From Psammoneis japonica (lineage: Eukaryota): a stretch of 23,687 nt of DNA. Below are positions 3,950 through 23,687 of the stretch, one piece after another. The stretch covers positions 124,001 through 147,687 of the forward strand of contig QPGO01000178.1 of NCBI GenBank assembly GCA_008632985.1. The letters are read 5' to 3'. The notes under the pieces were generated by a model. It was not told where the DNA came from. It was given only the letters and a program-made list of their open reading frames with translations, and made no database searches. The position numbers and the translations under genes are program-made. Numbering within the stretch: position 1 is the stretch's first letter; each line of letters starts with the position of its first letter.

Positions 3950-5870
3950 GTGGCTGATTTTCCAAGCTGCTGGCTGGAGTGCCGGTGCACTCATTTGTCT
4001 TTCCTCATCATTGACCAAAAAGCATCAACACTGACGCGATCTCTCTCACAATTGTGCATCATCAGACTGGCTCCTCTTGGACATGTGATCAAAGGTTTTC
4101 CTGCTTCAGTTCTCTCAGAAGAATCATTCTCAATGTCATCAACAAGCATCGGAAACACAATGTTCAAAAGCAGGGTCGTTGCTCATCTGCACACTCCCCT
4201 GGGCAATGCAGCTCCCATGGGTGTCAATGTCCACATTTCCACCAATGTTTGTGTCTGACAATTCCTTGCAGAGGCAAAATCATTCATTCCTGCCTCTGCA
4301 TCTCTGCTCCATCCTCAATCTGTCCATCCTCTGCCGCATCGTGCACACCTCTGGCGATGTTTTTTGCATCTCTCAACGGAGCTCCCAATTCTGATGCTGC
4401 GCCAATGCTTTCTGACCAAGGCTGTTGTTTTCCCAAATTCCATGACACTCACTTTCCATTTCTCTGAGTCACCTCCATTGTTTGGAGCAGCCAGGGCTGG
4501 CTCGCCTTGCATGTCACTCACTGCAAGATTGACCAAATTTGCTCCAACAACAAGGGCGGCACTGATGACAGCCAATGCGTTTCTTTCCTTTTGCACAATC
4601 CACCATGCAACAAGGAGAAAGCTGGTGAAAAATTTCCAGGAGTGCAGCAACAGATTGAAAATGCTTGCCAGCGGTGTTCCTCAAATGCCGTTTTTTGCTT
4701 CTGCTGGTTGCCCCCTGCAAAACAAGGAGCAATGAAAATTTTGATTTGTTCATCATGTTTTAGCGCACATGTTCAATGCATCATCCATGAACCAACCATG
4801 GTTCAGGATGGATTCAGAACTCTGTCACTCTTGTTCTCATTGTCTTGTTTGTGTGACTCGCTCCTTGTGTGACCATCAGGATCATCAGGCAAGGCACTCA
4901 AGACGAGCTTGAAATGCAATGAGTTGTTTCTTGCACCAGCAACCAATTGCAACAGTTCCATGTCTTGTGTCAGGATCAAGGAAGAGATTCTGAGAGTGTG
5001 CAAGTCTCTGCTCAAGGTGTTTGTGGATGCTCATGCATGAGAACAGAAACTCCACTGTCTCTGCCAATTTAATGCAGCAGCCCTCAAAGAGAAACCAAAA
5101 AAAAATGCGCCTTTTGTGTCATTCAGCCATCTTCCCTCCTCATGCTCTAAGGGACTCAACTGCAAACATTCTGATCACAAATCTGACAAGAACCCTTCCT
5201 CTGCTGGCAGATCACAACCCTTTTTACACAACAGCAAAATGGGGCTGCAACACTCAAGTTCAATGGACACACAACAAGAAGCAAAGTGCAGCAGCATCTT
5301 TCCTTCAATGTTGTGAGACCAAAAACATGTGGCTTTGTCATCATCATAAAAAAGCTTTTAGTTGCTGCCTTTTGTGCCTGTGTTTCAAACAATTTTGTTG
5401 GTGTTTCGTTGCTGTCCCTGTCATCATCACTGCGCTTGCTGCAAAGCTGGCTGCAGTGGCTGGCTCCACCAATTTGATCAGACCTGAACCATCCAACAAA
5501 GAATGCACCCATGCTTTGTCTTGAAGTCCAAACAAATGTGATGGACTGCCAAGGTTAGTGTTGGAATGTGTCAGACCAAAGAAGTGTGTGCTGCATTGCA
5601 AGTTTCGTGAAACAATGCCACACAAAAAAGGAGACGAGAGAGCATGGCATGCTCTTTGTTTTTTCTGCAGAAATGAGATCTTCCTCCATGTTCCAAGTTT
5701 TCCTTGATCCTTTTTCGGCATGTCATCCAGGAGGGTGTCTCTGACCTTCGTTTAAAAAACAATCCAGGACCCTCGCTTTCTTGCAATGACAGGAGGCACC
5801 GGGGTGAGGTGTTTGAGAAAGCACGTTCGTTTGTGCAGAGCATTTTTGAACCAGGCCTGCGGGGAGCATT
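3950..5870 (-). pseudogene. Degenerate hypothetical protein gene(s)
   Basis: Protein-like segments in shifting minus frames (SKRSDDDRDSNETPTKLFETQ; LSPLEHEEGRWLNDT; LAETVEFLFS..LEQRLA), downstream of a C/A-rich leader-like stretch at about 5900-6080. No family recognised; limits approximate. Confidence 0.3.
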
Positions 5871-6443
5871 GACCACTTGTCTGTTCGTGTGTCGTTGCAG
5901 GTTGGTGCTGCACGGTGTGAATGCAGGGCCCTGCTGTGCTTCGAAGTGCGTGCAGTTGGCAATGGTGTCGTGCCGGTGCATGCTCGTGTGCCATGCGGTG
6001 TGTGATGTTGTGTGGGCGGTGTGTGCATGGGTTGTGTCGGTGGATGGTCAGACGGTTGTGACGTTGTGACCGTTGTCAACTGCAGATGGCGCCGAGCATG
6101 GTGACGTGGATCGCCGTTGTGCCAGATGTTTCATGTCGAGTTTGGGGCAGTGCCGCAGAACATTTTTGCTCGTGATTGATCATTGTGTGATGCACATGGT
6201 TGCATGTTGAATGCAGATGCATTTCTGAAAAGCTGTCACGTTGGAGCCTGTTGCATCAAGCAAATCAGAGTCTGGATCTGGAAGGCAGTGTGACGTGTTT
6301 GCGTGTGGAACAGCACGATCGAGGGCATGCAGATCCTGCTGGGTTTTCATGGAACGTCGACACAGTTTGTTGTTGTTGGCGGCAGACAGAGAATCTTCTG
6401 CATTGGGTGCATTGTCATCATCGTAACTGTGTCCAGTTGCGCA

Positions 6444-6842
6444 ATGGCTCGCGTCAAGCAAACCGCACGCAAAAATGCCGGAGGTGTTGTCGGTCGTAAG
6501 AGGTTGCGTGGCAAAGCGGCGAAGGTTGATTCCAAGGCTGCCGGAAGGAAGAAACGTCATCGCTTCCGCCCCGGAGTCGTCGCGTTGCGTGAGATCCGGA
6601 AGCATCAGAAGTTGACGGAGTTGTTGATCCGGAAGGCACCGTTTCAGCGGCTTGTTTGTCAAGTGGCTGGTGAAGTGACGAGTGAATTGGGAATGCAGGG
6701 GGTGAGATTCCAGTTGACGGCCGTCTTGGTGTTGCAGGAGGCTTTGGAAGCGCATCTGATTGGATTGCTTCATGACAGCAATCTTTGCGCTGTCCATGCG
6801 GGGCGTGTGACCATCATGCCGAAGAATCTGATGTTGGCTTGA
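6444..6842 (+). pseudogene. H3: Divergent histone H3 variant, mutated (premature TGA at the R128 position)
   Basis: [67 protein letters not shown] matches the H3 tail and histone fold. Lesions: Y54H and Y99H (CAT at 6603 and 6753), S57L and S86L (TTG), R72C (TGT), R128* (TGA), R129C (TGC). Confidence 0.93.
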
Positions 6843-7201
6843 TGCACTCATGGCAAACATTGCCAGGCAGAAGAGAGAGGTTGGCGGCCTCTGGTTGTTG
6901 GGCAGCGAGGAGGGACTTCTTGCGTGGTTGAGACGCAGGGATGTTGTTGCGTGTTCGGATGCATTGCGCAGTGTTTAAGTTGGCGGTGTGCCAGATCAGA
7001 GTGTGTGTTTGTCATTTGTTGTGTGTGTTTTATGGTGTTGCAGTTCCAGCAGTTCTGGCATTAAAAAGTTGCATGGATCGTTGCCAAGCAATGTGCAGCA
7101 TTGTGCAGTTATGATGAATGGAGAAATGGATGTGCGCAGAGGTGCAGGGTGGGCCGCGGGCGCGGCAAGAGTCCTTTCCGCGCAATGTCCAGAGTGAGTT
7201 G

Positions 7202-8040
7202 TCAATCATCGCAGGCTTCGAGGGTGTCTGGGACGTCCTGCTTCACCGGACTTGCGCCGTTGGAGGCTTTCTGTTTGCCATCCTTGTCGTCTTCGACTGC
7301 GTGGCCAAACTCGTGAAGGGCGGTGTTGACTTTGTTTGGGCCACAGTGCAGTTCCATGGTTTCTCGATCGGTGCAAATGTCATCTTGGGTGCTGTCCGGG
7401 AAGCTGCATTGCATGACATCCATCGTGCAGGCGAGGGTGAGGTGGTTTCCAAGGTGAGCATCGCCTGGCCCGTTGACAGGAGTGAGGTCGGACCCGACGT
7501 CGCAGGGATTGTTCCACTTGAAATCTCTCTTGACAACTTCGTTCAGGACGTTGCAGAGGCGCATCACCCATTTCCTGCGTGGTTCTGGCATGTTCAACTT
7601 GGGGTCTTTCAGGACCCGGACCATGAGGGGCCAGGGCGTTTCACACACCTGGCTTGGATCGGATTTGGATTCGCTCTCTGCCGACCACACACAGATCGGG
7701 TTGCAGGCGCTGACGAGATTTTTTACGAAGTGAATGCCTGCAATCGACAAAATCTTGGTGGTCTTCAAGGCGTCCCACCATGGCTTGGCGAAAGGTGGCA
7801 TCGTGGTGGAACAGTTGCAACTGATGAGCCTTGCGATGATTTCTCCTGATCGAGTGCCGAAATGGTTGATGTGGTTTCTGCTTCTGGGTTTTTTTTGGTC
7901 GGAGATTCTTTGACGTCGGTGGCCACCTTGAAGTTCTGTCTGCGTTTGAGCGGCCTGTGGGTCGGCGTCTCACTCTCAGAAGGTGATTTCGATTTAGCAG
8001 CCGTTGACTTGGTGCTTCACTTCTTCGGATCGTTCGGCAT
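7202..8040 (-). pseudogene. Hypothetical protein with S/K/T-rich N-terminus and globular C-terminal domain
   Basis: ATG 8040 MPNDPKK*(TGA)STKSTAAKSKSPSESE..., then one frameshift into the 199-aa ORF 7202-7801 (FAKPWWDALK..KWVMRLCNVLNE) with protein-like composition. Family not recognised. Confidence 0.5.
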
Positions 8041-8127
8041 GGTGATGGTGGACGGGGCAGCATCGGGTGTGACTGTGGAAGCGGTGTTGCTGTGGCTTCT
8101 TTCGTTTTGTGGGAGGAGAAATGTGTG

Positions 8128-8772
8128 ATCGAAGAAGGGAGGGTTCGCAAATGGTGAGGAGGAGGCACAAATGGTTGCATGGGGTGGTTTGTCCAAAGTG
8201 CGGAGGATTTGGAAAAGAGGCAATTGCGTTGATCGTGACATGACTGGTTTGCAATGGGTGGTGGTTTGTCCGCAGGAGAGAGATTTCGCAATTTTGACAA
8301 TGGCTTGATTGGCTCACAAGGGGTGGTTCATCTGATGGAAGTTGGGTTTGCATGCATGGGGTTTTGCAAGGGGTGGGTTGTCTGATGAATGGAAGGTTCT
8401 CAAAGGATGCAGGGGCAATTGTGGTTTGTTTGAAGAACAAAAAAGGCATGTGTTGCTTCCAAGGCACAAATCTTGTGGTGTGTCCGAAGATCGGAGGGTT
8501 GGGCAAAAGTCGGTGAAAGGCACAAATGGGTCACAAGAGGTGGTTTGTCCGAAGAAGGGAGGGTTCGGAAATGAGGAAATTGTGATGACTCTGAAATGAC
8601 TGTTCGGCAAGATGTGGTTTGTCCGAAGAAGGGAGGGTTCGCAATTGAGTCAAAGGCACAATTGGTTTGTCGGGGTGGTTTGTCCGAACAATGATGGGTT
8701 CGCAATTGTGCAAGCAAAGGACAAGTGTCTTGCAAGGGGTGGTTTGTCCAAGGAACTGCAGGTTTTTCGCAA
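8128..8772. repeat. Degenerate tandem array, about 11 copies of core GGTGGTTTGTCCGAAGAAGGGAGGGTTCGCAA
   Basis: Cores at about 8130 (partial), 8183, 8260, 8322, 8372, 8421, 8475, 8539, 8614, 8674 and 8738; period about 48-77 bp. 8540-8567 and 8614-8641 are identical over 28 bp. Confidence 0.9.
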
Positions 8773-9072
8773 AAGAGTCATGGTCCACAATTGTTTTGCA
8801 GGGGGGGGTGTCTCGGCGGACAGCGCACCGGCAATTTTGTGCTGCACCTGCACAAGCACGGCAAATTTGCCGGGAACTGATTGTGTGTTGTCATGGTGCC
8901 GTGGGCCTTTACGGTGGTGCTGCAGGCACGGGCATGGTCGCACCGTTGGCAATTGGACTGGTGGCAATGTGGGTGTGTCGACACATGGGAGTGACAGTCA
9001 CAATGGCTGTCGAGTGGGGCAGGCACGTGTGGCGTTGTGTGTGGGTGGGACAAGACGCCTTGCCGGAGGTGC

Positions 9073-12000
9073 TCAGTTGGAATGCAGGCTGGCATTTCGC
9101 CAAGGTTTTTGCGCGCACAGCGGGAAAGACAGTGCAAAGTAAAACACGCAATGGTGAAAATAAAATGCAATTGTCACTGTGATTAAGGCGAAAATGTGTG
9201 TCCAGCTGAATTGGATTTGCCAATCACCCTTGTACGTTCCGTCGGGAGGTGCGGTGCAAACGAGCGAGTCGAGCCGTTGCCACTCGCCGTCCACTAAAAT
9301 TTTATGGTGGATTTTTTTCTTGGACGGAACTCGGCACATGTTGGGTGCCGCTTGCATTTGGTTTGCAACGAACACAAGGAACTCCCACTTGCAATCACTG
9401 CCTCTTGCCCGACCACAGCCACACTGTTCGACATGTGATTTTTCCATGTGTGTCCGCTTGAGTTCGCGTGGCTCCGACATGACATCATCGAACTGGGTGC
9501 AGATCGTGAGTTCATTGCCATTGTCATTGTAGCAGGACGTCCTGCCACACGTAAGAAACCAGCATCCAGGACCGTGTGAAAGGTTCTCGGAGACGAATGC
9601 CTCCAGTGCATGAGCGGGATTTGCCAGTCCGAACAGGGAGAAGAGCCGGATGAGGTCCATTGCCGTGAGGTGGCCCAATCCTTTCAATGTGCGACTTTGT
9701 ACGATGGTTCAATGAACCTTGTCAGCTGTTTTGGGCACTGTCTGGTTCCCGAATGCAAGGTCCGTAGCAGCTCCTCTGTGCAATTTCCCATGGCCTCGAT
9801 GACAGGTTTGTCTGTGCAAGATTGGACCGCCGGTGGTTGCGACGCGTGGTGGCGGGGGTGGGCACATCTTGGACGGCATCTGTCCCCCTTGCGGCTTGTT
9901 GGTTGTGTCAGTGAGAGTGGCTCGCCAAAGGACAGGCAGTGCAATTCCGCCGCACACAACATGCACAAATTGCGTTTGACACGGATGGCCGCGAAGAAGG
10001 CACCGGGTTGTCCGTTGAAGCGGTTCTCCATGAAATTGTGCAGGACGGTGAGGATCAGCCACTGCCCCGGACATTCGCGTGCAACGAAAAGGCACAAAAA
10101 CACCAAGTCCTTGGCAACCACCACTGTGGTGATGCATTCCGTGGTGTCGAGCCATTGGAGGAAGTGCAGGATGACGTCGACCGTGCTGGAGCAGTTCAGC
10201 ATTTTAGCAATGCGCTCCAAAAGGAAGCACGTGTGTGCCATCGTTCGGCCGTCGTGCTCTGCAAATGTCTGTCTGTCGGCGCACCACTTGCTCAGCCGTT
10301 CCATCGTTGCTTGGGTTGGTCCTTTGTCATCGCAATCAAACAGGTTGACGTCTGACCAAGTTTCGTCTGTGAGGGCAGCAAGGAAGTCTGTGCAGACGCC
10401 GCTGGCCGCAATGGATCTTTCCAAGCTCATTGCTCTGGAGCAGATGACTTGTTTGCTGCAGAACATTGCGCCGAGGTTGATGATTTGGGATCACATGCCT
10501 GCGTTGAGGAGGGTCTTCTGTTGTGCCTTGCTGAAATGATTGGACATTTCCACTTTCAGATTGAGTCCCGTGGAATGACAGCACTTGTCCGTGGAAGAAT
10601 CCCCGGCATCAAGGTGCAACCCCGTTAAGTCCGTGACGTGGAATTGCGTGGCGTGGTGTTTCATGCCGGTGATGTCTTCCGCATTCATCTTCTGGCGGAG
10701 ATGTTTCAGCATGAACTCTCGGTGTGGGCAGTGCGGAAAATGTTGCGACTCGTCACCATGGAAGATTGCCGACACGACAAAATCGCGTGCCATGGATGAC
10801 AGTTCCGCCATCTCTCTCAAAAATTCCTTGCTGAGATGCTCTGTTTTTCCGCCGACACCGGGAAACATCACACCTTCATGCTTGCACATGACTTGTGCTT
10901 GCTGGTCACTTGTCCCGACATTCAGTGACATCAAATTCCATTCGCAGTCCTTTTTGGCTGACTTGCAAAATTCGTCAAGGTGCAGGCGGATGATGCGGAA
11001 CAGTTTGGCACCGATGGGTTTCAGCAAATCGTGATGATTTGTTGCTGCAGGTTGGAGTGGATCGTTGGACGGAAAATGGTTCTTGTCGTTGCGCAGTGGG
11101 ATTGCTTCCTGATCGCACTCCTCTTCTAGCTTGGGGATTTTTGCAACGGGTCCCACACCGTGGTGCGTGATGTTGAGAAGTTTGCTGAGCGTTAAATTCA
11201 AGGGAGCGCATTGGACAGCGCAGATCTTGTCGACGTGTTTTTTTCGGAGGAACTTCCAAGCGAGGCAGCCTCATTTGAAGTGAAGCATGGAAGTTGCTTT
11301 TTGCAACTTGGGAGCAAAATGGAAGAGACACCAGTCGCACATGTCGTCCATGGTGCATCGCATTTCGTCCAGGGCGGTTTGTCGGAGTTCCATCATGGAA
11401 TCCCGCCAAGTCTGGTTTTCCCGGCAAGCTTCGAAGCGACGTTTGTTGTGCTGCGATTTCTTGGATCGTTGTTCGAGTTTCCATTTCTTGCGATCCAACT
11501 CATCTTGCAATTTCTTCGGAAGCCTCAAATCATCTGAACAGTTTGACAGATCGTCGTTGCAATCCGTGATGTCACAATCTTCTTCTCGGGAATTGTCATC
11601 GTCTTCACTGTCCTTTGGATCCGGCGGCAGTGCGAAGTTGTAGACGTGCTGTTTGTCTGCGTTTGGTCGTGATTGCCTTTCATTGTGGCAGATGAGGCAT
11701 CGACGCTTCTTGTCCGTAAGATCCTGACGAGTCATGCATGTTGGACACATCCATTTGCGTGTGACAGGAAGTTTCGAAGTTTCCTTGGGGTGCGTCGCTT
11801 TGTTTGGAACAATCTTGGTGATGTCAATGCCTTGCTTTTTTAATGAAGCAATCGCAAGTTTTTTCTTGCGGCATTTTGTCTTCTTGCATTGGCGTCCTTT
11901 GTTGACACAACATTTGCGAGTTGTGTGTCAGTGCTTCTCTTTGGGAGGCAGCAAGGATGGGTCGAACTTGGGGACTGGAGGACCGATGCCGTCCACGGAA

Positions 12001-12269
12001 GGGTTCAAATGCCATCCGTTCGTGTGCAAGGCCAGAGTCATTGGCATGGATGGAATGGGCAACAACCTGTGGATCAGAGGACTCGTGCCGTCCATGGAGG
12101 GTTTGAAGTGCCACTCGTTTGTGTGCGAGGCCGGTGTCATTGGCACGGGCGGAATGTGCAACATGCTCTTCGGGAATGGTTGCGTCGTCGCACTCCGAGT
12201 GAATTGCGAAAGGTGAGGCAACGGCGGCCATTTTGGCGCAAGGGGACACGGTCAAGGTGGGACTGGCAT
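9073..12269 (-). pseudogene. ~1000-aa protein: Pro-rich N-terminus, RanBP2-like zinc finger, acidic tract, possible 2OG-Fe(II) (TET/JBP-like) HxD region, C-terminal HhH-like motif
   Basis: Track ORFs 12252-12461, 11928-12221, 11271-11750, 10491-11201 and 9684-10466 share one frame, broken only by single TGA codons (12252, 11928, 11271, 10491). A frameshift near 9750 and TGA 9709 lead to ORF 9073-9687. Motifs: WMCPTC-x12-CLIC, TGLHLDAGDS, LKGLGHLTAMDLI. The gene is well supported; the domain calls are tentative. Confidence 0.7.
11989..12156. repeat. 99-bp-period in-frame duplication
   Basis: ccgtccacggaagggttcaaatgccatccgttcgtgtgcaaggcc at 11989 versus ccgtccatggagggtttgaagtgccactcgtttgtgtgcgaggcc at 12088. 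Encodes PMTPASHTNEWHFKPSMDG / PMTLALHTNGWHLNPSVDG on the minus strand. Confidence 0.9.
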
Positions 12270-13171
12270 TAAATTGTTGAACTCTCCGGCTTTCATGCGG
12301 TGCCCGTGTGACGTGTTTGCTCCAATTGCACTGGCATGGCATGTTTGAAATTGGTTTTGTGTGACAGGTGGTGTCGGAGTTGCGTTGTGTGGTTCTGTCT
12401 GGTTTGGATTCGGAGGGTGCTTGGGGTTTGGCGAGAGTTTGTGCTGTTGATGTTTGGGCATGGCAGGGTCAATGCGGTCAAGGCAACGGTGTGTGGCACC
12501 TCAACAGTTCCAAGTCATTGGTGTTGGTGGCGGAGGGTGGTGGAGGACACAAGAGGGGCAACGGATGCACGTGCATGTGGCGTCTCATGGCGTGGCATGT
12601 TGTTGCGGCGGGAATGTTCTGCGCGACATTGTGAGAGATGATGTCATCACAATGTTCACATGTAAATTGTCCCATGTGCATTGCAAAAGTGGAAATGCTT
12701 CACACAAAGGAGGTTGCAAGAAAAGTTCAGCATTTGCCCTGACAATGAATTTGCCAATCAAATTCGTTTTTGATGACATGCGAAGGGTGCATTTAAGGAA
12801 AAGACAAAAACCGAATCACAACTGTTGGTGTCGATTGTTTGGAAACTTGCTTTGTGTACGTGCAGTTTTCACTGCAGTTGCAGCAATTGTTGGGGGCAAC
12901 AAGACCATCATCAGGGCTTCTCTCTGTGTCTTGCTGCAGAAAATTGCACTTCATGGCAGCTGCTGCAGCAACCACTGCACAGCACCGGTGCTGCAGTGCT
13001 GTGGTGCGGTGTCGCATGCATCCGCTGCAGTTTGCAGCACAGACCAGCAAGTGACAAGTGCCACCGAGACAACTGTTTTTGTTGGCGTCTTCGTGACAAG
13101 TCATTGCTGTCTGCATTGCAGTGTGGTGGTGGCACTGTGTTACAACAGGTGGTTTGCAGTGCAGTGCAACA

Positions 13172-14026
13172 ATGGTTCGTGCGAGTCGCAAAGGGACCAC
13201 ACAAGAACTTCAAGAACCACATCCAGTTGGCAAGAATCGCCAACAAGACAATGCTCCGGCAAAGGTCATGAGGGCTTGTGAGGCATCTCGCAAATGCTTT
13301 CACAGACACAGCAGGGGCCTGCCTTGATTGCGTTGCAAGAAAGGAATGGCATTGAAGCGATTAAAAAGGAAAGCATCTGAGCAAGCGCAACATGCCACAA
13401 GTGGTGCAGATGGCACAGAATGTGATTTGTTCGAAGACTTTCGAGTTGATTGCACGCATCCGGAAAAGGTAAAAAAACACGGAAGTCATTGTCAATGGAC
13501 CTCAATGTTGCCTGTGGAGGTTGATGGTGTGTCACAGAAGGTCACCGTGAAACGACATGACAAGAACGCCACGCACAAGTTGTCCATTCTGTCCAAGAAG
13601 GGTGTCATGGAAGATCACATCTTGGCAAAGTCCCTTCCTGTGAAGGACGTCATTGATGGTGACGCCCTTCACATGGTGGTTGCATTGCATTGTTTTGAAA
13701 AGGGCAGCACTGTGGGAGTGCACGTCGGAAAAGAACGGAGCGTGAACGCTTCTGAGTTGGAAAAAGCCTCGGTGCGTGTCCAAAAACGGCGCCGGCACTT
13801 TTTGAAACAGAAGGTGGTCGGAGATGTTGTGACAGGAATTGATGCCGTAGGAGGCGTTGCATCTGGACGTCCCTTGCACCTTGGAGTGCATCTTGTCAAC
13901 GACCCTGCTTTGTCTGGCGGGAAAGCGAGCAAAGCGAACTGTGAAGTAAAGACGGATGGCACCGTTGTCACTGCGAAAAGAGTCCATCCGGGACAAGAGT
14001 TGCTTTTCCATTGTGATTGGCAGTGA
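13172..14026 (+). pseudogene. SET-domain protein (putative lysine methyltransferase), mutated
   Basis: ATG 13172, in-frame TGA 13325. SET-like motifs VVAL..FEKGSTVGVHVG (F.KG..IG.Y.G), LHLGVHLVND..KANC, and VVTAKRVHPGQELLFHCD (A.K.I.PG.EL..DY), with the expected tyrosines read as H or C. Confidence 0.75.
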
Positions 14027-14029
14027 ACA

Positions 14030-14685
14030 TGTTTTAAATTAAAGTGTGGTTGCAACATCACACAGTGTGGCAATTGGCGCTCCCGCCCACAAAAAGGACA
14101 ACTTGGAGGTCCTTGAGAACTTCGCATCCAATGGCAGAGACAGCTTTGGTGGAAAGCATGAAGGCACACATGAGGCACAGCCACTTTGCAGTTGTCGTTG
14201 TCGTCCTTTTCAAAAGGCATTCTGCACAAGCAGCATTCTTTGCCAGCAGCTCCCATGGTTGTCGGAAGGTCGCTGAAGCGCCGATCTTCACAGACAATGC
14301 GTTTGATGCAATGAAGTTTGCTTGGATGAGTCTTCTTGCAAGGATCACATCGGTTGATGGGGGGGATTCTCCGGAGACGCCTTGGTTCCGAAGTGTCAAT
14401 TGGAGTGCGTTTGTTGCATGGAACCCAAGCATCTTCCTTGCAATCAACCCACCTTGTTTTTGTCCTCACGTTGTCTTTCCTGAATGCCTTGGGTCCTTGC
14501 AGTGCTTCAGCTTCGTGTTTGATTTTTGCATTTCCGTGTTCTGCCAGGATCATTTTTCTGATGGGAGGCCGTTGAGACTTGAACGAAGCATGTTTGGTGG
14601 CAGCCCAATGGACACGCTGCAGACGCGTTCCAGCCCCAGGTGGGAGCTCGTAGTGCTGACGTGTGACAACAATGATTTTTGTCAT
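14030..14685 (-). pseudogene. RING-H2 finger protein (putative E3 ligase), convergent with the SET gene
   Basis: CCLC-x19-CLHAFHQSCLCHW..SCPFC at about 14088-14235 fits C3H2C3 spacing. The track ORF's extension to 13669 is probably read-through antisense to the SET gene after loss of the stop codon. Start and end approximate. Confidence 0.75.
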
Positions 14686-15377
14686 AGTCGCATGTTTCGT
14701 ACGCAGATTTCCACGTGTGACATTTAAAAAAATTGTCCAGACTCGCTGTTTTGCGAAGCCCCAGACGTTTCACATGACAAATTTGTAGAAACAACAATGC
14801 GCTAGTTGCATTCTTCAATGTCTGAAGAATGTGACTGGCCAAGTAAAAAATGATGCACTTCAATCATGTGCAAGTTTGTGCGTTCGCAAAATTGCCTCAT
14901 TTTCTGTTGGCGATCATTGACATTTTAATTGCCGCACAATTTTGCTGCGGAGCTCGCACGCAGAAGTCTGCAGGCCCAATGTCACACGGATTCCCACCTG
15001 CATCTGGAACGCGTCTGCATCTCTGCCTTTCGTTTCTTTTGTTGTTCTTTTTTTTTAAGCCGTTCCTGCTGCATGATGTCAGAACACGGAGTGGAACTTG
15101 ACTCCCCGTCAGTTGTTGTCGTTTCACGACGTTGTGACGATGCTGTCATGTTGATGTGTCACAAGAAAGTGCAGCAGTCAGTGAGAGGTTTTAGGGTTGG
15201 TGGCACTGTCATCCGTTCTTGTGCTTCCTGTCAGTGCGCTGCCATTGTGGAGTTGTGTCCGTCAAATGAGTTGGGGTGTCGTGAATGGGTGCACGTCCAT
15301 TTTGTGCGGTTCATCAGTCTTCGTCTGGGAGTCATCCGGCGGCAAAATGATGCTGGCAAGGAGTGCGCGAACAGGCG

Positions 15378-15655
15378 CTGTGACTGCATCACTGGAGGAC
15401 AACTGCAGCCATTGTCCAATTGGCTTCATGTGAGTTTTACATCCGAGTGTGGTGCAATCAAACTTGGATTGTGTGCCATTGTCACCATGAGGAGAGCCCG
15501 CTCTCTGCCAGTGCCACAGCGCTGTAGAGAGTGGGCACTGTGACTGTGCGTGCAGCATCACTGGAGCACAACAATTGCAGCCGTCACACTGTTGGCTTCA
15601 CATTGGTTTTAGCCATCCAGAGGGCTGACTCAAATTGGTTTGTGCTGTGTCGTCA
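15378..15655. repeat. Degenerate direct duplication, about 169-bp period
   Basis: gcatcactggag..tgcagcc..ttggcttca..gtttta..catcc..tcaaa..ttgg occurs from 15386 and again from 15555. Confidence 0.7.
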
Positions 15656-16142
15656 ACTGGCCAGCACTGCTTTGCTGCACTTGCAGTGCTGCATGTTTCT
15701 GATGTGAACGCTTCCAACTTGGCCGTTATTTTGCGTGCTTCATTTGTTCAAAGTGCACCGTTGTGATCTTCAATGCCGTCATAGGATCATTGTTGCGTAA
15801 GCCACAATGTGGCACATGTCAGCTCAGTGCTGCAATGCAATTTACAATGTTCAACACAAACAATTCTTGTGCTGTTTTTGTCTCTTCCTTAAATGCACCC
15901 TTCTCGCATCATCAAAAACGATTTTGATTGGCCGGTTCATTTGTTAAAATGTCTGTCGGGACGGCACTGTGCCAAGACAATCGAATCAACAAAGTTTGTT
16001 CATAGCACGCATGTCTAAATGTCTCGAGTTGTGCTTTGACAACTTGGTGAATTTGCCAAATTATGGAGGGTGTCATTCAGTGCTGTGTTGTGGTTGTGTG
16101 TCGAGCTGCACAACATTGTTTCACGCATCGTCCACAATGTTG

Positions 16143-19100
16143 TCAATTGCTCTGTTCTGTCAATTGTCTGCAACGATGGCAAGCTTTGTTCATGTCCCAA
16201 CTGTCCTTTTTCCAGTTGTGGTCTTTCGATTGACTGAAGCCAGCAAAAAATGCTTCTGCAGATGTGTCAGGCTTCAGATCTGACACACGCTGAATGGATT
16301 CCCATTTTTGCATTTCAAAGCAACCTGTCAAAAGCAATTGCCTGTTTTCTGGCAATTTAACTCTGCTGCTTCCCACATGCAGTTTGGCACAAGTGCAGTT
16401 GGCGACTTGTCGATGTGACATTGCGAGTGTCTCATGGTCCAAAGTCTGTCCCTTGGCTTTGTTCGCGGTCACGGCGAATCCCATCTCTAAAGGAAATCAA
16501 GGCGCAACGATGCATTGCGATGGAAGACATCCTGGTCCACCCGGAATCGGAACGGGTTTCGGTTCCTTGGTTCGCATTGGAGAAACCGGCATCACCACCT
16601 CCCTTTTTACGATGGATTTGTCTCTCAGCAATCGCAATGTTTCACTGTCAAAATCTTCGGGATCCAGTTTGATGTTTGCCATGATGGGTGGCTCGGACAG
16701 TGTGACGACGGTGCCAGCCGCACCATTCTGCTCAGTGTAAAAGTCGACGAGGTCCACGTCATGTGGATTGCCGATCGTCAAAGAATGGCACTTGAACTTT
16801 CTCCCGTTTGCCATCTTGAGATGTGCGTCAATCTTGCTGGCAATGCACCCGGGACCACCAGCAACAAAGTGCTCATGGAATGCCATGTCCTCCATGGCCT
16901 GTGCTTCACAAGCCTGGGCAGGTTTCTGTTCCCATTTTGTTGGTTTGGCAGCCAACCATCGAAAGACAACGGCACCTGTGTGCCTTGCAAATCAAACCGC
17001 TGCCTCGTGGTTCAACGTGTGACGTTCATGATTGGCAATGACAATTGTCGGAGCCGTCAACCATGGACTGTTTGGCTTTGCAAAATCGTCTTCCAAGAGC
17101 AATGGAATCGATTTGCAGCAATCAGGATCAATCCGTTCATGATGATGGAATTTGGACAACAGCTCCGTGTGACGTGGATCCTCACAGCGCAGTTGTTGTT
17201 CGAATTCGATCCATTTGACCGATGCGAATGTCTCACACCCAACGCGACATGGAGAACCTTCTTGCAATCGTGCCTTCTGCTCTTTGGTCCACTTCTTCGC
17301 TCTTTTGTTGCTGCGAACCTTGCCCGCTCTCTTCCATTTGTTCCTGTTGCCCGTGGAGAGGAGTGTTCACCCGGATGTTTCCAACATTTCTGCATCTCGA
17401 ACCCAATTCTGTCTTTCCCTTTCCATTTCTTGATGGTGTTTGTAAGCCGCCACTTCCATTGAGGCACTGGTTGACGAAGGTCCAGCCACAATCGGTCCAT
17501 TTTGGTCCAGATCCCCAGCAAATGAGACAGGAATGCCTCCAAAAGGCGTGCCGATGTTTCCAGTGAATTGCTGCAAAGTCCAGCTCAATTGTGCAAGATG
17601 CCACAGAGCCTGATTTCCGACTTCGTCTACAAAGAGCAATGTTGGATCCTTCAACAACGACTTCAATTCGTTCAATTGATTTGCGGTGAGATCAACCAAC
17701 TCTTTCATTCTCATTGCCGTGTTTTGGCCCAGAAAGATCAAACAAGCTGTTGACGGTCCGCCGATGTCAATCGCGTTTGTCCCATTGAAAGCCGTCCAAG
17801 GAATGTTCCTGGATTCAAGAATGGACAGATCAACAGCATTTTTGAGACAAAGGCTTTTGCCTGTGCCTGCCGCACCGTGCACCAACACCATTGCCGGCAC
17901 ACTGTTGTCGGGATCTTCAGGTGCTTTTGCGCATGCCGAATGAAGGTTGAACACTTCCCAGTGTGCAGGCGCAAACAATTCCTCTCGGCTTTTCATCGTC
18001 TTCTTTGTCGCTTCGTGCTCCGTGTTCCGCTTTCCAGGCATTGTGCCAAGGCCACCTTCAGTCGATGGGTGTTTGACAGAAGTGTTTGTGTTGTTGTCCG
18101 GCTTGCAATCTCTTGTGTCTTTGCTCATTTTCTGACACCATTTGATTGAGTCGTCTGCGGTGTCATTGTGAAACACCAGTGACTTGTTCCAGCTGTTGTG
18201 GTGCATGGGAACAAGTCAGGCGTTGTGGTTGCCACGCCAAGGGTTCGTGGTGTGACACACAGACACCATGTTGCGTCCGTCTTCCAATGCTTGCAGGATG
18301 CTCTGGTGACTCTTCTCTGACAGCTTGCGATTGACGGTTTCGAACACCATCTCATCAGTTTCGTTTTGCTCTCGGTTTTTTAAACATTGTTCGATTGCAA
18401 AATCCGTGGACCATCGTTGCTTTTGTTCTTCGGCCCAAAGCATCCGATTGCGTCCACGACACTGAGCCAGCATCCACTCATTTAAAAAGCTCATGTGAAG
18501 CCCTTGCATTCCAGTGTGCATGGCAAAGAGTCTCATTTTAGACACGACAGACTGGTCGGTTCGCAGTTCTTCCATCCATTTCGCTGATGCAGCCCAATCA
18601 TGTTCACAACGGTTCACGTGAGATGACTCATGGCATTCCGTTTCTGGACGGCACTCACACAAATGGAATCATGCAAACTTGTTGGCTTTTGCTTTCCACT
18701 GGCGGCATTGCATGCTGGTGCGAAGTTCATCACACGGTTCCTTGCCCGGATGGGGGGGGATGTTTTTCTGTCAAGATGACCATCTTCTGCTTCTTGTCCA
18801 GCACTTGAGCACACTGACTTGCGACAGGAAAACTCGGCGCAAAGGCAAAATTTTCGTCTGTGGTCCTCCCTTCTCCTTGACGGACACGAACGCTTTGCAC
18901 TTGTTGCGGTTCAACATGCGCAGCTCTGTGCCACGATTCCCGCAAAACGCAGCTTTCGGAATCAGATGTTTTGTTTCCAAAGTGTCGCCATTGGGTGGCT
19001 TCTCTTTCAACGTGAACAAACGGACGGTGCCCAGATTTGCCTGCATCAAATCGTCTTCATTGCACTGATCCGCGTCATCTTCCTTTTTGTCTTCCGCATC

Positions 19101-22100
19101 TTCTGCCGATTCCTTCTTGTCTCCTTCTGTCTCATCTTCTTCATCACTGTCTTCACACCCGTCGCACGAATCGTCAATGAACATGCTGTCTTCCAAGTCG
19201 CGTCTCTCTCTTTGTTCCAACAGCCGTTCAAACAGTCATTCCATGCGCTGTTTGCCATCTTCCTCCATTTGGATTAGAGTGCTGTGAGCCCGGTCGCAAG
19301 CCGGATTGCTGCAAACAAATTTCTCCAAAGCAATGATGCTCGGCAGACCCAGCAAGTCGGCACACATCTGGCAATCGGACAACTCCATTTGCAAGTTCAT
19401 CTTGTTCATCACACGTTGGAGGACTTGTTTCACACTGCGTCCGGAGGTTCCTGCATTGTCTGCCTTGCTGGCACACTGCTTGGCATGACTGATGGCTTCT
19501 CGAAACAACACTGCGCAATGTTGCAAGGGATGCTTGCATTTGCCCATGCACAGGCATGTGTAGAAGATGGCTCCTTTCGCTTGTCCAGTGCTTCCCAACA
19601 ACTGACAGTTGTCATGAGAGCCGGTGCAGCAGGAGATGACGACATTGAACATGGAAACATTGCCATTGCCCTCCTTTGCAAAGTCGAGGAGTTCCAAACA
19701 AAATTCAGTCAGCTTCTCCTCCATCAGTTTGTCGAGAGCCATCCACAAAGATTCACGATTACGACACGTGTCCGAGACGCCATCTCGCAACGATGCCAGC
19801 ATTTCATCTTTGGACATTTCTCCACCATTCAACCGACACTCAATGTCATCCAATTGCACACGCGGTCTTTTTGTCTCCCACACTGTCACAGAATCTTCCA
19901 TCTTTCTTTCCAAAATGTCGATGGTCTCGTGCCGTTCTGGTTCGTCGTTCCATTCCATCTCTTCTGCATCACACAGATTGCAGTCTTCCTTTTCTTCTTT
20001 TTGCACCACACCTGCTGTTTGACTTTCCTCAGCCCGACTGCCATCGTCTTCTTCTCTTTCAAGCACCTCTTTCTTTGGCACCAAACGCACTGCTCCCAGT
20101 CTCTTCTACAAGGCCGGCTGGTTGGGACAAGCGACACCACTGCTGCCCATTGCACCTTGTGGCAAGTCAGCATGTGATCGTGCATTTGTTGTTGGCCTCC
20201 TTGCCCAGAAGTTTTTTCTTGCACTCGTTCATGCTGCACGTGTCCTTCTGGTTCCATCACTTCTAACAGATGCAATCTTTCTGGCAACGGATTTCGATTC
20301 ACCCGGTCCAAGACATTCTTTGGAAACCGCAATCGTCTCTCTTCTTTTCGACAATGGCTGGCATGCCACCAATCGAAAAGCACTGGCCTCGGCAAAGAGG
20401 ATTGATGCATTCGATCCAGTGTCTCTGACAACGCTTTGCAAACTTCCTTCAAATGCGCAAAATGCTGCATTGCATGTGAAACAACAGGTGGCAATGCAGA
20501 GTTCCTTTTTTGTGATCTTCCACAACAGCAATGTGCCCAAGACAATGGCCAAAAATGCCCTTGTTTGTGATTTAAAAATGTCAAGTCTTTCGACGTGACT
20601 CACTCATGTGTCGAGAAAAGAAGTTGTCCAGCGGCATTCCCAAAAGCAATGCACAGACATCGTTGATCAACGACTGACTCTCTGCCACAAACGCGACGGG
20701 GTCTTCAATTCCTTTAGAGGCACTGTCCTGTCTGGACAAACCAGGCAAATCGATGACTCCTGCGCCAACTTCCGCAGATGCACATCTCATGTTCTCCATG
20801 AACTCTTCTCCACCACGACCGCACCCCGAACTCTCATCAAAGACCACCCAGAAATGTCTTGTTGTTGACAGTTCGGAAAGTCGTCCGAATGGCATGAGGA
20901 TTCCCACAGTCGTCAAATGACAATGTCATGAAACAAGACGGAAGGCCCATTCTTTTTGACATTTCAAGAGTCATCGATGTCAACTTGCTGGATTCATTGC
21001 AGCCATGTGACGTGTCCTTTCCCATGGGTCGAAGATGTCCCAGATGTTTCTGCTGAAAGTCTTTTGCTGCTTTTCCACCCGGATTTGCCACCACTTCATC
21101 AAGCTTCTTCAATTCGGTTTCGTCTCTGAGCAGGCTTCTGATCATTGCAGCAGACTGTTTGCTGTTTCGGACGTGAGAATTCACTTGAAAAATTGCTTCG
21201 AACCGTTTCTTGCTGTCGAAACAGCAAGCCAACAACCTCCTGTCCAACGAAGGCACTCAAGTGAACTGTCGCAAAAGATGGTTTCGTTCAATGTAGTTCA
21301 GTTTTCCCAGTGCTTTGTCGCACATGCGTCCAAACATGAACCCGTTGGGGAATGTGGTCGCCACCTCAAAATCACTTGCAGCAAATTCATTGATCGGATC
21401 ACTCTCCCGGCAGCTGTCACACATTCCATCTCTCTCGGTGGGAAGCGACGGCATTGACATGTCATCGTAATCATCGCATGGTTTTATGTCATCCAAAGGA
21501 GAGTGGTCTTCCACGGCATCATTGTCTTTGTCACTTTCCAACATGACATCCTCCTTTTCACTGTCATGAACGTTTGCAGGGTCAGGCTTGCAATCTGAAT
21601 CTGCCAAACACTTTCCGTCTGCATCCTCGCCCTCTTTCCTGCTTGACGATTCCGACTCTGATGCGGAACTTCTGGAATCGTTGTTGCCGCTGCTGCCGAC
21701 AGACCAATCAGAATCATCAGAATGTTCCCCATCGCTTTTAGCACTCACGTTCTCTTCTGCTTTTTGTCCCTTGTGCCGACATGCTGACTGTTTAAAAGAT
21801 CGAAGACAAGCCATTCTCATTGTGATTTCATCTTGATGAGTTGATCCCGCACTGTCCACAATGCAGAAAAATCTCATGCTGTCACTGGGTTTTTGTGTCT
21901 CCACTTCGTCCCGTTCTTCTTCATCGGCATTGTCAGTGTTCAAAATTTCTTCCGATTGTGCTTTTGCAACATCAGAGCCGATGGCATCTTCATCTTGTAA
22001 AATGGCTTTGTCCTTCACGCGACAAGCTGAATCTTTTGTGTGCTGCACAGCGATGCCTGCATTGTGCTGCACTTTGGCACAAGAAACGCCAATGGAGCAA

Positions 22101-23687
22101 TTGCCTTTTCCCCACAAAATGGCATTTAACGCCGTTGCCCATCCACACAGATTCCAAGCACGTCCAAAAATGTCATTGCGTCCGAAAGCTTCCTTTGCCA
22201 GTGTGTCAAATCTGCCTTCAGGGTCCAAGAAACAGAGCCGTGACACCGACTTCATAAAATTAGGATGAAACATGTCTTTCACACTCAAAATCTCTCGGAT
22301 CGTTTCTGGAGCATCATGGGCGAACAAAATGCAATTGCACTTCAAACAGCTGTGATCGAAATTTACATGGCCACGGCGATTCGAGGAAATCTTGATCGTC
22401 GATGCAAACAACCAATTGCGTGATAAAATGAGCTGTTCATGCAAGTTCAATGGCTCCAAATCCAACCGTCTGAAATCCCCGCGGCTGTTGACAGTTTTGG
22501 TTGTTCGGCCTTTTCTTCTAAACACTCATGGCACGTGGGACACAAGTGAGTGAACTCCTTTCCGGCATCATCTGTGTCTGCCAATTCCAGATGAAGATGG
22601 CGCCATTCACCAACAGATTCTTGGGACTCGTACATGGAGTGCCCTTTTTTCAAATCAATCGTTTTGAATTTGCCATTTCCATCTGCCAGAATTGCCACAT
22701 GACCCAACTGTTTCTGCCATTCCAACTTCTGCAAGTCTTTGTCCGCACAAAATCGCAAGGGCCCCAAGATTCCATTCTTCAACCACACCCTGGTGCACTT
22801 GATTTTGGGTTCCGCAGGTCTTTCCAACATCCGAATCCCGCATGCTCCACAAGCAATCATGCACCCGTTCATGTGTGTGAATGACACAGATTCCTCACTC
22901 ATTCCCTCTTTCGAAATGTCACTCACAATTCTCTTGACATCCACCTCTTTTCCGTCACATTTCTTGTCATGTTCTCCATGACGATCAAACTGAAGACAGC
23001 CTGAATTTACATGATGCAACACAACCTCAGAACATCTTTGTCGAAATGCTCAAAGAAACCATCGTCTTCAGGATGTTCTTCCATTTCTTGCAATTTTTCC
23101 ATCAAAAATGCTTCAGACACGTGGTCCGAATCCAAGCCTCGAATCTCCTTTTCGGCTTCATTTAATTCATCCTGTCGTCATTGCAATGCCTGCACGGCTT
23201 CACGTTGCAATCTCTCCTGATGTTCCTCCTCCGACTCCTTGCTTCGCAGATCTGTTTTGTGTGCGCTCCCGTTGCAACCTCTCCTCACGTTGGTCCTCTG
23301 ACTCCGTGTTCCGCCGGTTCGCGCTTTCTGCGCCGCCTCTCGTTGCAGCCTTTCCCGATGTTCGACCTCCGACTCTTTTCTCTGCCAATCCGCTTTGTGT
23401 GCCGCCTCCCATTGCAGCCTCTCCTCATGTTTGTCCTCCGACTCTGTGTTCTGCCGGTCCGCTTTCTGCACCGCTTCTCGTTGCAGCCTCACCCGACGTT
23501 GGACCTCCGACTCTTTGTGGAGCTGACCCGATTTGTGTGCCACCTCCCGTCGCAGCCTCTCCTCACGTTGGTCCTCCGATTCTGTGTTTTGCCGGTCCGC
23601 TTTCTGCGCCGCCTTGCATTGCAGCCTTTTCCAACGCTGGACCTCCGACTCTTTGTGGAGTCGATCCGTTTTCTGTGCCGCCTCCTG
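16143..23687 (-). pseudogene. Helitron RepHel transposase (HUH Rep plus PIF1 helicase), 5'-incomplete, broken by stops and frameshifts
   Basis: N to C: charged 23-aa repeats; Cys motifs CGACG and CPTC..PKLSTAAG..LEPLNLHEQLILSR (DUF6570-like); Rep motif 1 GLPSCFMTLSFDD (about 20910-20950), DPVAFV; motif 2 KGIFG..VVEDHKKGTLHCHLL (HUH at 20488-20496); motif 3 AKGAIFYTCLCMGK (about 19540-19580); PIF1 GAAGTGKS (about 17851-17875), LLFVDE, PFGGIPVSFAGDLDQ, QQLRCED, FPLEMGFAVTANKAKGQTLD, LHVGSSRV. Confidence 0.93.
23190..23687 (-). repeat. Coding tandem repeat, 69-bp (23-aa) unit with 138-bp periodicity, in the RepHel N-terminus
   Basis: ESEVQRRVRLQREAVQKADRQNT / ESEDKHEERLQWEAAHKADWQRK; ggacctccgactctttgtgg at 23501 and 23639. 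About 7 units, continuing past the window edge. Confidence 0.92.

Follow-up and report, generated by a model that had tools for sequence, protein, structure and literature searches.

A decayed and divergent histone H3 variant in repeated, TpA-stripped DNA of Psammoneis japonica

The locus and its TpA-poor domain

The window, by which we mean the whole stretch of 23,687 nucleotides analysed here, opens with the exon of a GH35 host gene and then passes into a domain almost devoid of the dinucleotide TpA (2069-23687), in which lie the relic of a histone H3 gene (6444-6866, forward strand), a probable SET-domain ORF, a RING-H2 finger and a decayed Helitron-like Rep/helicase (RepHel). The domain extends to the end of the window and so measures at least 21.6 kb, and its left edge is sharp, adjoining the normal GH35 exon directly. 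Dinucleotide counts give 108 TA in 21,687 nt for the domain (observed/expected 0.08) and 72 TA for the first 2000 nt with the flanking host gene (0.51), while the other ratios within the domain are 1.70 for CpA, 1.48 for TpG and 0.73 for CpG. In its 423 nt the H3 gene itself holds a single TA, where the rate of the host exon predicts 12.6 (P 4.5e-5). In the frames that we read through, all in-frame stops are TGA. Long ORFs in all six frames were considered as evidence for genes and rejected, being explained by the loss of TAA and TAG, and because these two stops have been erased the length of an ORF carries no such evidence here. The counts point to repeats as the target of TA-directed A:T>G:C transitions, a process opposite to fungal RIP. 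We found no account in the literature of diatom DNA that loses TpA or mutates in a RIP-like manner, and a TpA loss so nearly complete and so sharply bounded may outrank the histone in importance. The named relatives of the GH35 exon in the first 2 kb are all from diatoms and its best database match is 60% identical, from which it follows that the host lineage is poorly represented in the databases.

Within the domain the H3 gene sits in a compositional sub-block with approximate edges at 5900 and 16000, which is marked by an excess of TG over CA and by more CpG than the DNA at 2.25-5.25 kb. The bias, expressed as (TG-CA)/(TG+CA), is 0.15-0.31 between 5251 and about 12750, and CG counts per 750 nt are 42-50 in the sub-block against 9-29 leftwards. 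For coverage we used the contigs of the one sequencing run found to contain this stretch, a DNA run (X1) whose sample-mates X2 and X3 contain next to none of it; no RNA run turned up as containing it. Summed X1 contig depth is about 60-70 left of 5.3 kb and about 95-140 around H3, a weak signal that does not give copy number. A composition break, where CpG rises and the TG bias begins, lies at 5251-6000 and includes a high-copy stretch (5314-5970, summed depth 1157); it is probably the junction of two repeat units differing in age. Near 16 kb the lesions switch from one strand bias to the other. Tandem arrays occur at 8119-8777, with units of about 61-77 nt that are mostly near 64, and at the right end of the window (23188-23687), with units of 69 or 138 nt.

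RepHel occupies 16500-23049 on the reverse strand and is interrupted by TGA stops and frameshifts. Its profile matches are to PIF1 (E 2.9e-9), DUF6570 (E 0.0055) and Helitron_like_N (E 0.0069), and a single frame at 16500-20105 read through six TGA codons matches PIF1 at E 3.3e-8. An X1 contig about 10% diverged from the window joins 14616 to 15015 and 15776 to 19136, which indicates that the stretch at 14.2-19.2 kb is a repeated unit. The first of these joins skips a MITE-like insertion of 398 nt (14617-15014) with 28-nt inverted ends (14618-14645 and 14992-15019), a summed X1 depth of 66,512 and eight retained TA sites; since it keeps its TA and the contig runs past its position without it, the insertion postdates the TpA loss.

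The ORF at 13328-14026 on the forward strand is decayed and probably encodes a small SET domain, to judge from an ESM Atlas feature score of 0.96 and from the 25 of its 30 Atlas matches that fall in SET clusters, the nearest of them haptophyte and Nucleocytoviricota. It has no Pfam match and none in PDB at E up to 10, its AF2 model has a pLDDT of 32.5, and a BLASTP alignment to a Pfam-confirmed SET protein is colinear but has an E value of 1.9. On the opposite strand the ORF at 13672-14769 contains a RING-H2 finger (14088-14235; zf-RING_2, E 1e-4) whose 22.9 bits lie under the Pfam cut-off of 27.3. These two ORFs are convergent and are enclosed by 91-nt inverted repeats (12744-12834 and 15851-15941). 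Between them and the histone a 748-codon frame on the reverse strand (9684-11927) is interrupted by two TGA only and has a CxxC...CxxC finger near its start; it matches no Pfam family and its stop-free piece has no usable ESM Atlas match. Scans of 19, 7 and 133 ORFs found no H4, H2A, H2B or other histone elsewhere in the window.

The H3 relic, its residues and its decay

The relic is a genuine member of the H3 family and no chance ORF, because it matches the Pfam histone family PF00125 over residues 25-132 (E 1.9e-27, 96.4 bits against a cut-off of 26.4) and because a search of PDB chains returned 177 distinct sequences at E <= 1e-3, the best 60 of which are all H3.1, H3.2 or H3.3-type chains with E near 1e-42. 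The H3-specific N-terminus ARxKQTARK and the motifs PGxVALREIR and PFQRLV are present in the alignment. The original prediction had placed the gene at 6444 to 6860, and the start is retained here while the end is moved, as 6860 falls inside a decayed C-terminus and the reconstructed gene, intronless and of 140 residues, runs to 6866. Its open part consists of an ATG and 132 codons in all before a premature TGA (6444-6842, stop at 6840-6842), followed by the decayed C-terminal codons and a former stop, once TAG and now CAG at 6864-6866 (6843-6866).

This copy is a pseudogene, since it has lost its last eight residues to the TGA at 6840 and carries further lesion-type replacements. That TGA is one CpG-type transition away from CGA (Arg), and each of the nine codons from 6840 to 6866 is a single CpG- or TA-type transition away from R-R-I-R-G-E-R-C-stop. 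Both remaining conserved tyrosines, Y54 and Y99, are now His codons (CAT), and R72 has become a Cys codon (TGT). Two X1 contigs cover the 3' end of the gene, and at 6825, 6843 and 6847 the X1 sequence has G, C and T in place of the A, T and C of the window. The differences correspond to N128D, C>R and T>I, each of which brings the protein nearer to ordinary H3, so that X1 carries an allele or copy that has decayed slightly less and in which the TGA is identical.

For the comparison of residues we aligned the relic with nine ordinary H3 proteins chosen among its best database matches and used conventional H3 numbering. Identity to the nine is 64-67%, and identity to their consensus is about 74% once lesions are reverted. 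The alignment agrees with what had been predicted of the tail and of the fold: K4 and K9 are kept; T3, S10, K14 and the K27 ARKS motif are lost through T3V, S10N, K14V, R26K, K27V and S28D; Q68 (in PFQRLV) and F84 (in RFQ) are retained; and loop 1 is five residues longer, as 15 in-frame nucleotides (6690-6704, forward strand, codons 83-87) add GMQGV after the L of the TDL motif and ahead of RFQ. Other changes are T11A, A15V, P16G, V35R, P38R, Y41F and T45V, together with T in place of K79 and G in place of K115. Residues that are also kept comprise A1, R2, Q5, T6, A7, R8, K18, K23, K36, K37 and K56 as well as C110 and H113. The residues of the four-helix bundle are ordinary (C110, H113, L126 and, in the X1 copy, D123), and residues 87-90, which we take to be the H3 chaperone-recognition patch, equal the protist consensus after two CpG lesions are reverted. 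Overall the first ten residues and the core of the fold are preserved, and the middle of the tail has been rewritten yet remains basic and rich in K and R.

The original prediction also held that the odd tail and the long loop 1 are older than the TA and CpG decay, and the types of substitution, their ratio and the sparing of invariant columns all speak for this. Only 9 of the 42 substitutions relative to the H3 consensus are of the lesion type, that is revertible at a TA or CpG, leaving 33 that are not; in the tail, whose changes had been described as no such lesions, 1 of 19 is revertible versus 8 of 23 in the fold. Counting minimal codon paths at the 28 H3-specific positions, defined as those with a residue found in none of the nine ordinary H3s, gives 19 transitions and 19 transversions. 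The window compared with the X1 contigs over 4000-23687 gives 1192 transitions to 183 transversions (6.5:1). Of the 78 columns in which the nine H3s do not vary, 12 are changed, versus 30 of the 49 variable columns (Fisher p 1.9e-7), and after lesion reversal 8 of 78 versus 25 of 49, although the choice of best matches as the nine comparison proteins may have influenced this test. Both indels in the H3 gene are in-frame (+15 nt and -3 nt), and frameshifts are found in the neighbouring RepHel. The absence of further stops says little, because TpA loss erases TAA and TAG. Judged by these patterns of substitution, with few changes of the lesion type, a 19:19 ratio, invariant columns spared and indels in-frame, the variant is shown to have been held under H3-like constraint through most of its evolution and to have been inactivated later.

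Relatives of the relic

Among the 8000 word-richest candidates drawn from 5.8 billion proteins, 7998 of which matched at E <= 1e-3, none was closer to the relic than ordinary H3, and full-length matches were at most about 65% identical. Likewise there was no closer relative among the best 150 of 14,502 matches to 1.84 billion cluster representatives (51-67% identity), a library clustered at 50% identity in which a close relative may be hidden. A search with the tail only (residues 1-46) yielded four candidates and one match, the protein P0388, at E 0.77; P0388 shares T3V, Y41F and T45V with the relic and is 57% identical to it overall. A scan of JGI metagenomes for the ten-residue N-terminal start gave 49 loci, 36 of them with BLASTP matches, the best at 59% and none a close relative. 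In a tree of 35 rows, which contained no CenH3 sequence, the terminal branch of the relic measures 0.85 against a median of 0.075, and the relic attaches to an unresolved comb of H3s in no supported clade and apart from P0388 and the metagenome protein L048 (bootstrap unconverged). On these comparisons the relic is an orphan H3 variant among the database sequences compared.

The metagenome scan also returned proteins that are not histones. Two loci, L006 (2971-5016, forward) and L013 (478-2826, reverse), combine the ten-residue start with a Pfam SET domain (E 1e-22 and 4e-21), and these SET proteins may carry a built-in pseudo-substrate tail. Other non-histone ORFs with this start were found at L003, L004, L010, L022, L028, L033 and L043, and at L014, L027 and L029; they include a C2H2-like finger family of about 640 aa at full length, the SAP-domain protein L014 and two ORFs with no family. 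Mimicry of the H3 tail at N-termini thus seems to be recurrent in environmental eukaryote or virus DNA.

Origin of the gene and its possible effect on chromatin

The composition and repeat content of the DNA around the relic raise the question as to whether the gene was carried there by mobile DNA. The original prediction had taken it for a TE-borne histone. Its position in hypermutated, repeat-rich DNA beside a Helitron-like element is supported, and carriage by a transposon is a plausible reading. Four observations favour cargo: the H3 gene is as fully stripped of TpA as the transposon genes, its sub-block (about 5.9-16 kb) abuts the RepHel block, the diverged X1 contig that joins 14.2-15.8 kb to 19.1 kb marks that stretch as a repeated unit, and extra X1 contigs lie over 8720-9265 and over the 3' end of H3. 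Against this, H3 and RepHel lie 10 kb from each other, one on each strand. No X1 contig and no other result links the position at 6.4 kb to RepHel, and inspection by eye for Helitron termini at the left edge of the domain turned up a weak 5-bp stem only. Any such termini are likely to have been defaced by TpA loss. Because of the opposite strands, the 10-kb gap and the switch in strand bias near 16 kb, H3 and RepHel may belong to different elements. Nevertheless we infer that carriage by mobile or repeated DNA is the likeliest reason for an H3 in this block, a judgement with about as much chance of being right as of being wrong. In the sequence of events that we propose, a constrained H3 variant would have joined repeated, silenced DNA adjoining or including a Helitron-like element, and a transition process which removes TpA (to CpA or TpG) and CpG, whose mutation pattern is shown by the domain, would then have destroyed H3 together with its neighbours. 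The joint reading, of a dead and divergent H3 variant that was once constrained and that lies in repeated, silenced DNA as its likely cargo, is in our estimation an even call.

Alternatively the gene could be a lineage-specific host H3 variant, a bystander that was mutated within, or duplicated into, a TE-rich heterochromatic island. The pattern of constraint suits a host gene equally well, no element boundary was found around H3, and many protist H3s among the best matches (P0055, P0058, P0117 and the P0388/L048 clade) are without K27. Furthermore, with a host lineage sampled so poorly that the best GH35 match is 60%, a lineage-specific host H3 would look like an orphan too. We nonetheless consider this explanation somewhat unlikely, as H3 has lost TpA as completely as the transposon genes, repeats flank it on both sides (the high-copy stretch at 5314-5970 and the extra diverged contigs at 8720-9265), and the window contains no H4 or other histone, whereas diatom H3 is reported in H3-H4 doublets, the arrangement given for the Phaeodactylum H3 genes (PMC4504042).

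A different explanation is that an ordinary H3 was captured by a Helitron-like element and drifted neutrally, its odd tail and loop being products of decay. Helitrons are known to pick up copies of host genes, this copy is dead amid decayed neighbours, and the copies differ by transitions in all four directions, beyond those at TA and CpG. Drift is nevertheless improbable, given that the H3-invariant columns are spared (p 2e-7), that H3-specific changes stand at 19:19 transitions to transversions versus 1192:183 between copies, that both H3 indels are in-frame where RepHel is frameshifted, and that the mid-tail is rewritten, though still basic, in a protein whose first ten residues and fold core are preserved.

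Centromeric H3 is distinguished by a tail that cannot be aligned with H3, by a longer loop 1 and by the loss of Q68 and F84. A CenH3 paralogue or pseudogene would account for five extra residues in loop 1 and for the repeat-rich DNA, yet we regard it as very unlikely: the tail, of normal length, aligns with H3 from end to end with one gap, Q68 and F84 are both present, CENP-A and Cse4 chains are absent from the best 60 PDB matches, and identity to ordinary H3 is 64-67%, or about 74% to the consensus after lesion reversal. The original prediction, which had likened the relic to canonical H3 and not to CenH3, is thus sustained by the alignable tail, the two retained residues and the PDB matches. 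It is equally far-fetched that the histone was taken from, or left by, a giant virus, a notion to which the Nucleocytoviricota among the nearest ESM clusters of the SET-like ORF lend some colour, but against which stand the 59 viral H3 loci of IMG/VR (47-63% identical, below the 64-67% of cellular H3), an IMG/VR scan for close relatives that gave 10 pattern matches and no relative, another for the ten-residue start that gave none, and the absence of viral hallmark families from all scanned ORFs of the window.

Were it expressed, the H3 variant would likely be deposited as ordinary H3 and form normal nucleosomes, because its fold, its four-helix-bundle residues and residues 87-90 (with lesions reverted) are ordinary. 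Nucleosomes containing it would bar methylation at K27 and K79, acetylation at K14 and phosphorylation at T3 and S10, and they would expose the larger loop 1 as a new bulge. In Phaeodactylum tricornutum H3K27me3 covers many transposons, and H3K9me2/3 mark TEs about as widely, with 1350, 1510 and 1421 of 3493 TEs for the H3K9me2/3 and H3K27me3 marks (PMC4504042). The original prediction proposed a TE-borne histone possibly refractory to PRC2, or a decoy, and both roles are hypothetical. Losing K27 would not by itself release an element from silencing, because the variant keeps K9 and H3K9me2/3 mark TEs so widely.

It is also conceivable, though rather doubtful, that a diatom mobile element, Helitron-like or a larger composite, carried a chromatin kit made up of a nucleosomal H3 with these properties, a RING E3 and a small SET methyltransferase; with this kit the element would have packaged itself, and the host would have silenced the entire element by TpA-directed hypermutation. 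If this is true, it would be the first case of a core histone borne by a transposon. Core histones have been described in cells and in certain large DNA viruses, and we found no transposon carrying one in the literature. Reported TE fusions involve readers, SNF2 and SET domains, with histones not among them in the available part of the source (10.1101/2021.11.30.470311). Since no transposon-borne histone was found in the literature, a once-constrained H3 without the Polycomb site, adjacent to a Helitron-like gene and a probable SET gene, is a concrete lead, namely that mobile DNA may tamper with the composition of the nucleosome itself, beyond the readers and writers of histones.

Comparison with known systems places the relic close to, and at the same time apart from, each of several kinds of gene. 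With ordinary protist and plant H3 it has in common the full histone fold, an equal length apart from the loop insertion and a nearly identical first ten residues; unlike them it has 33 non-lesion substitutions, has lost T3, S10, K14, R26-K27-S28, P38, Y41, T45, K79 and K115, bears the loop-1 insertion, lies in hypermutated repeats without an H4 partner and is a pseudogene. Protist H3s that start with ARVKQTARK (the P0388 cluster, L048 and others) share T3V with the relic and lack the K27 motif as well, but they are only 57-59% identical to it, and the tree does not join them with it; T3V evidently recurs. CenH3 (CENP-A) resembles the relic in its longer loop 1, by five extra residues in the latter, and in its repeat setting, and departs from it in that the tail of the relic is H3-like, Q68 and F84 are kept and the best 60 PDB matches by sequence are all H3.x chains. 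The stand-alone H3s of giant viruses differ from it both in identity (47-63%) and in context, the neighbours of the relic being Helitron-like and without viral genes. Genes captured by Helitrons are usually fragments. The locus recalls such captures in that a host-type gene lies near a RepHel gene in what may be one repeated block, and it differs from them in that the H3 relic is complete and bears the marks of past constraint, its location between Helitron ends being only putative.
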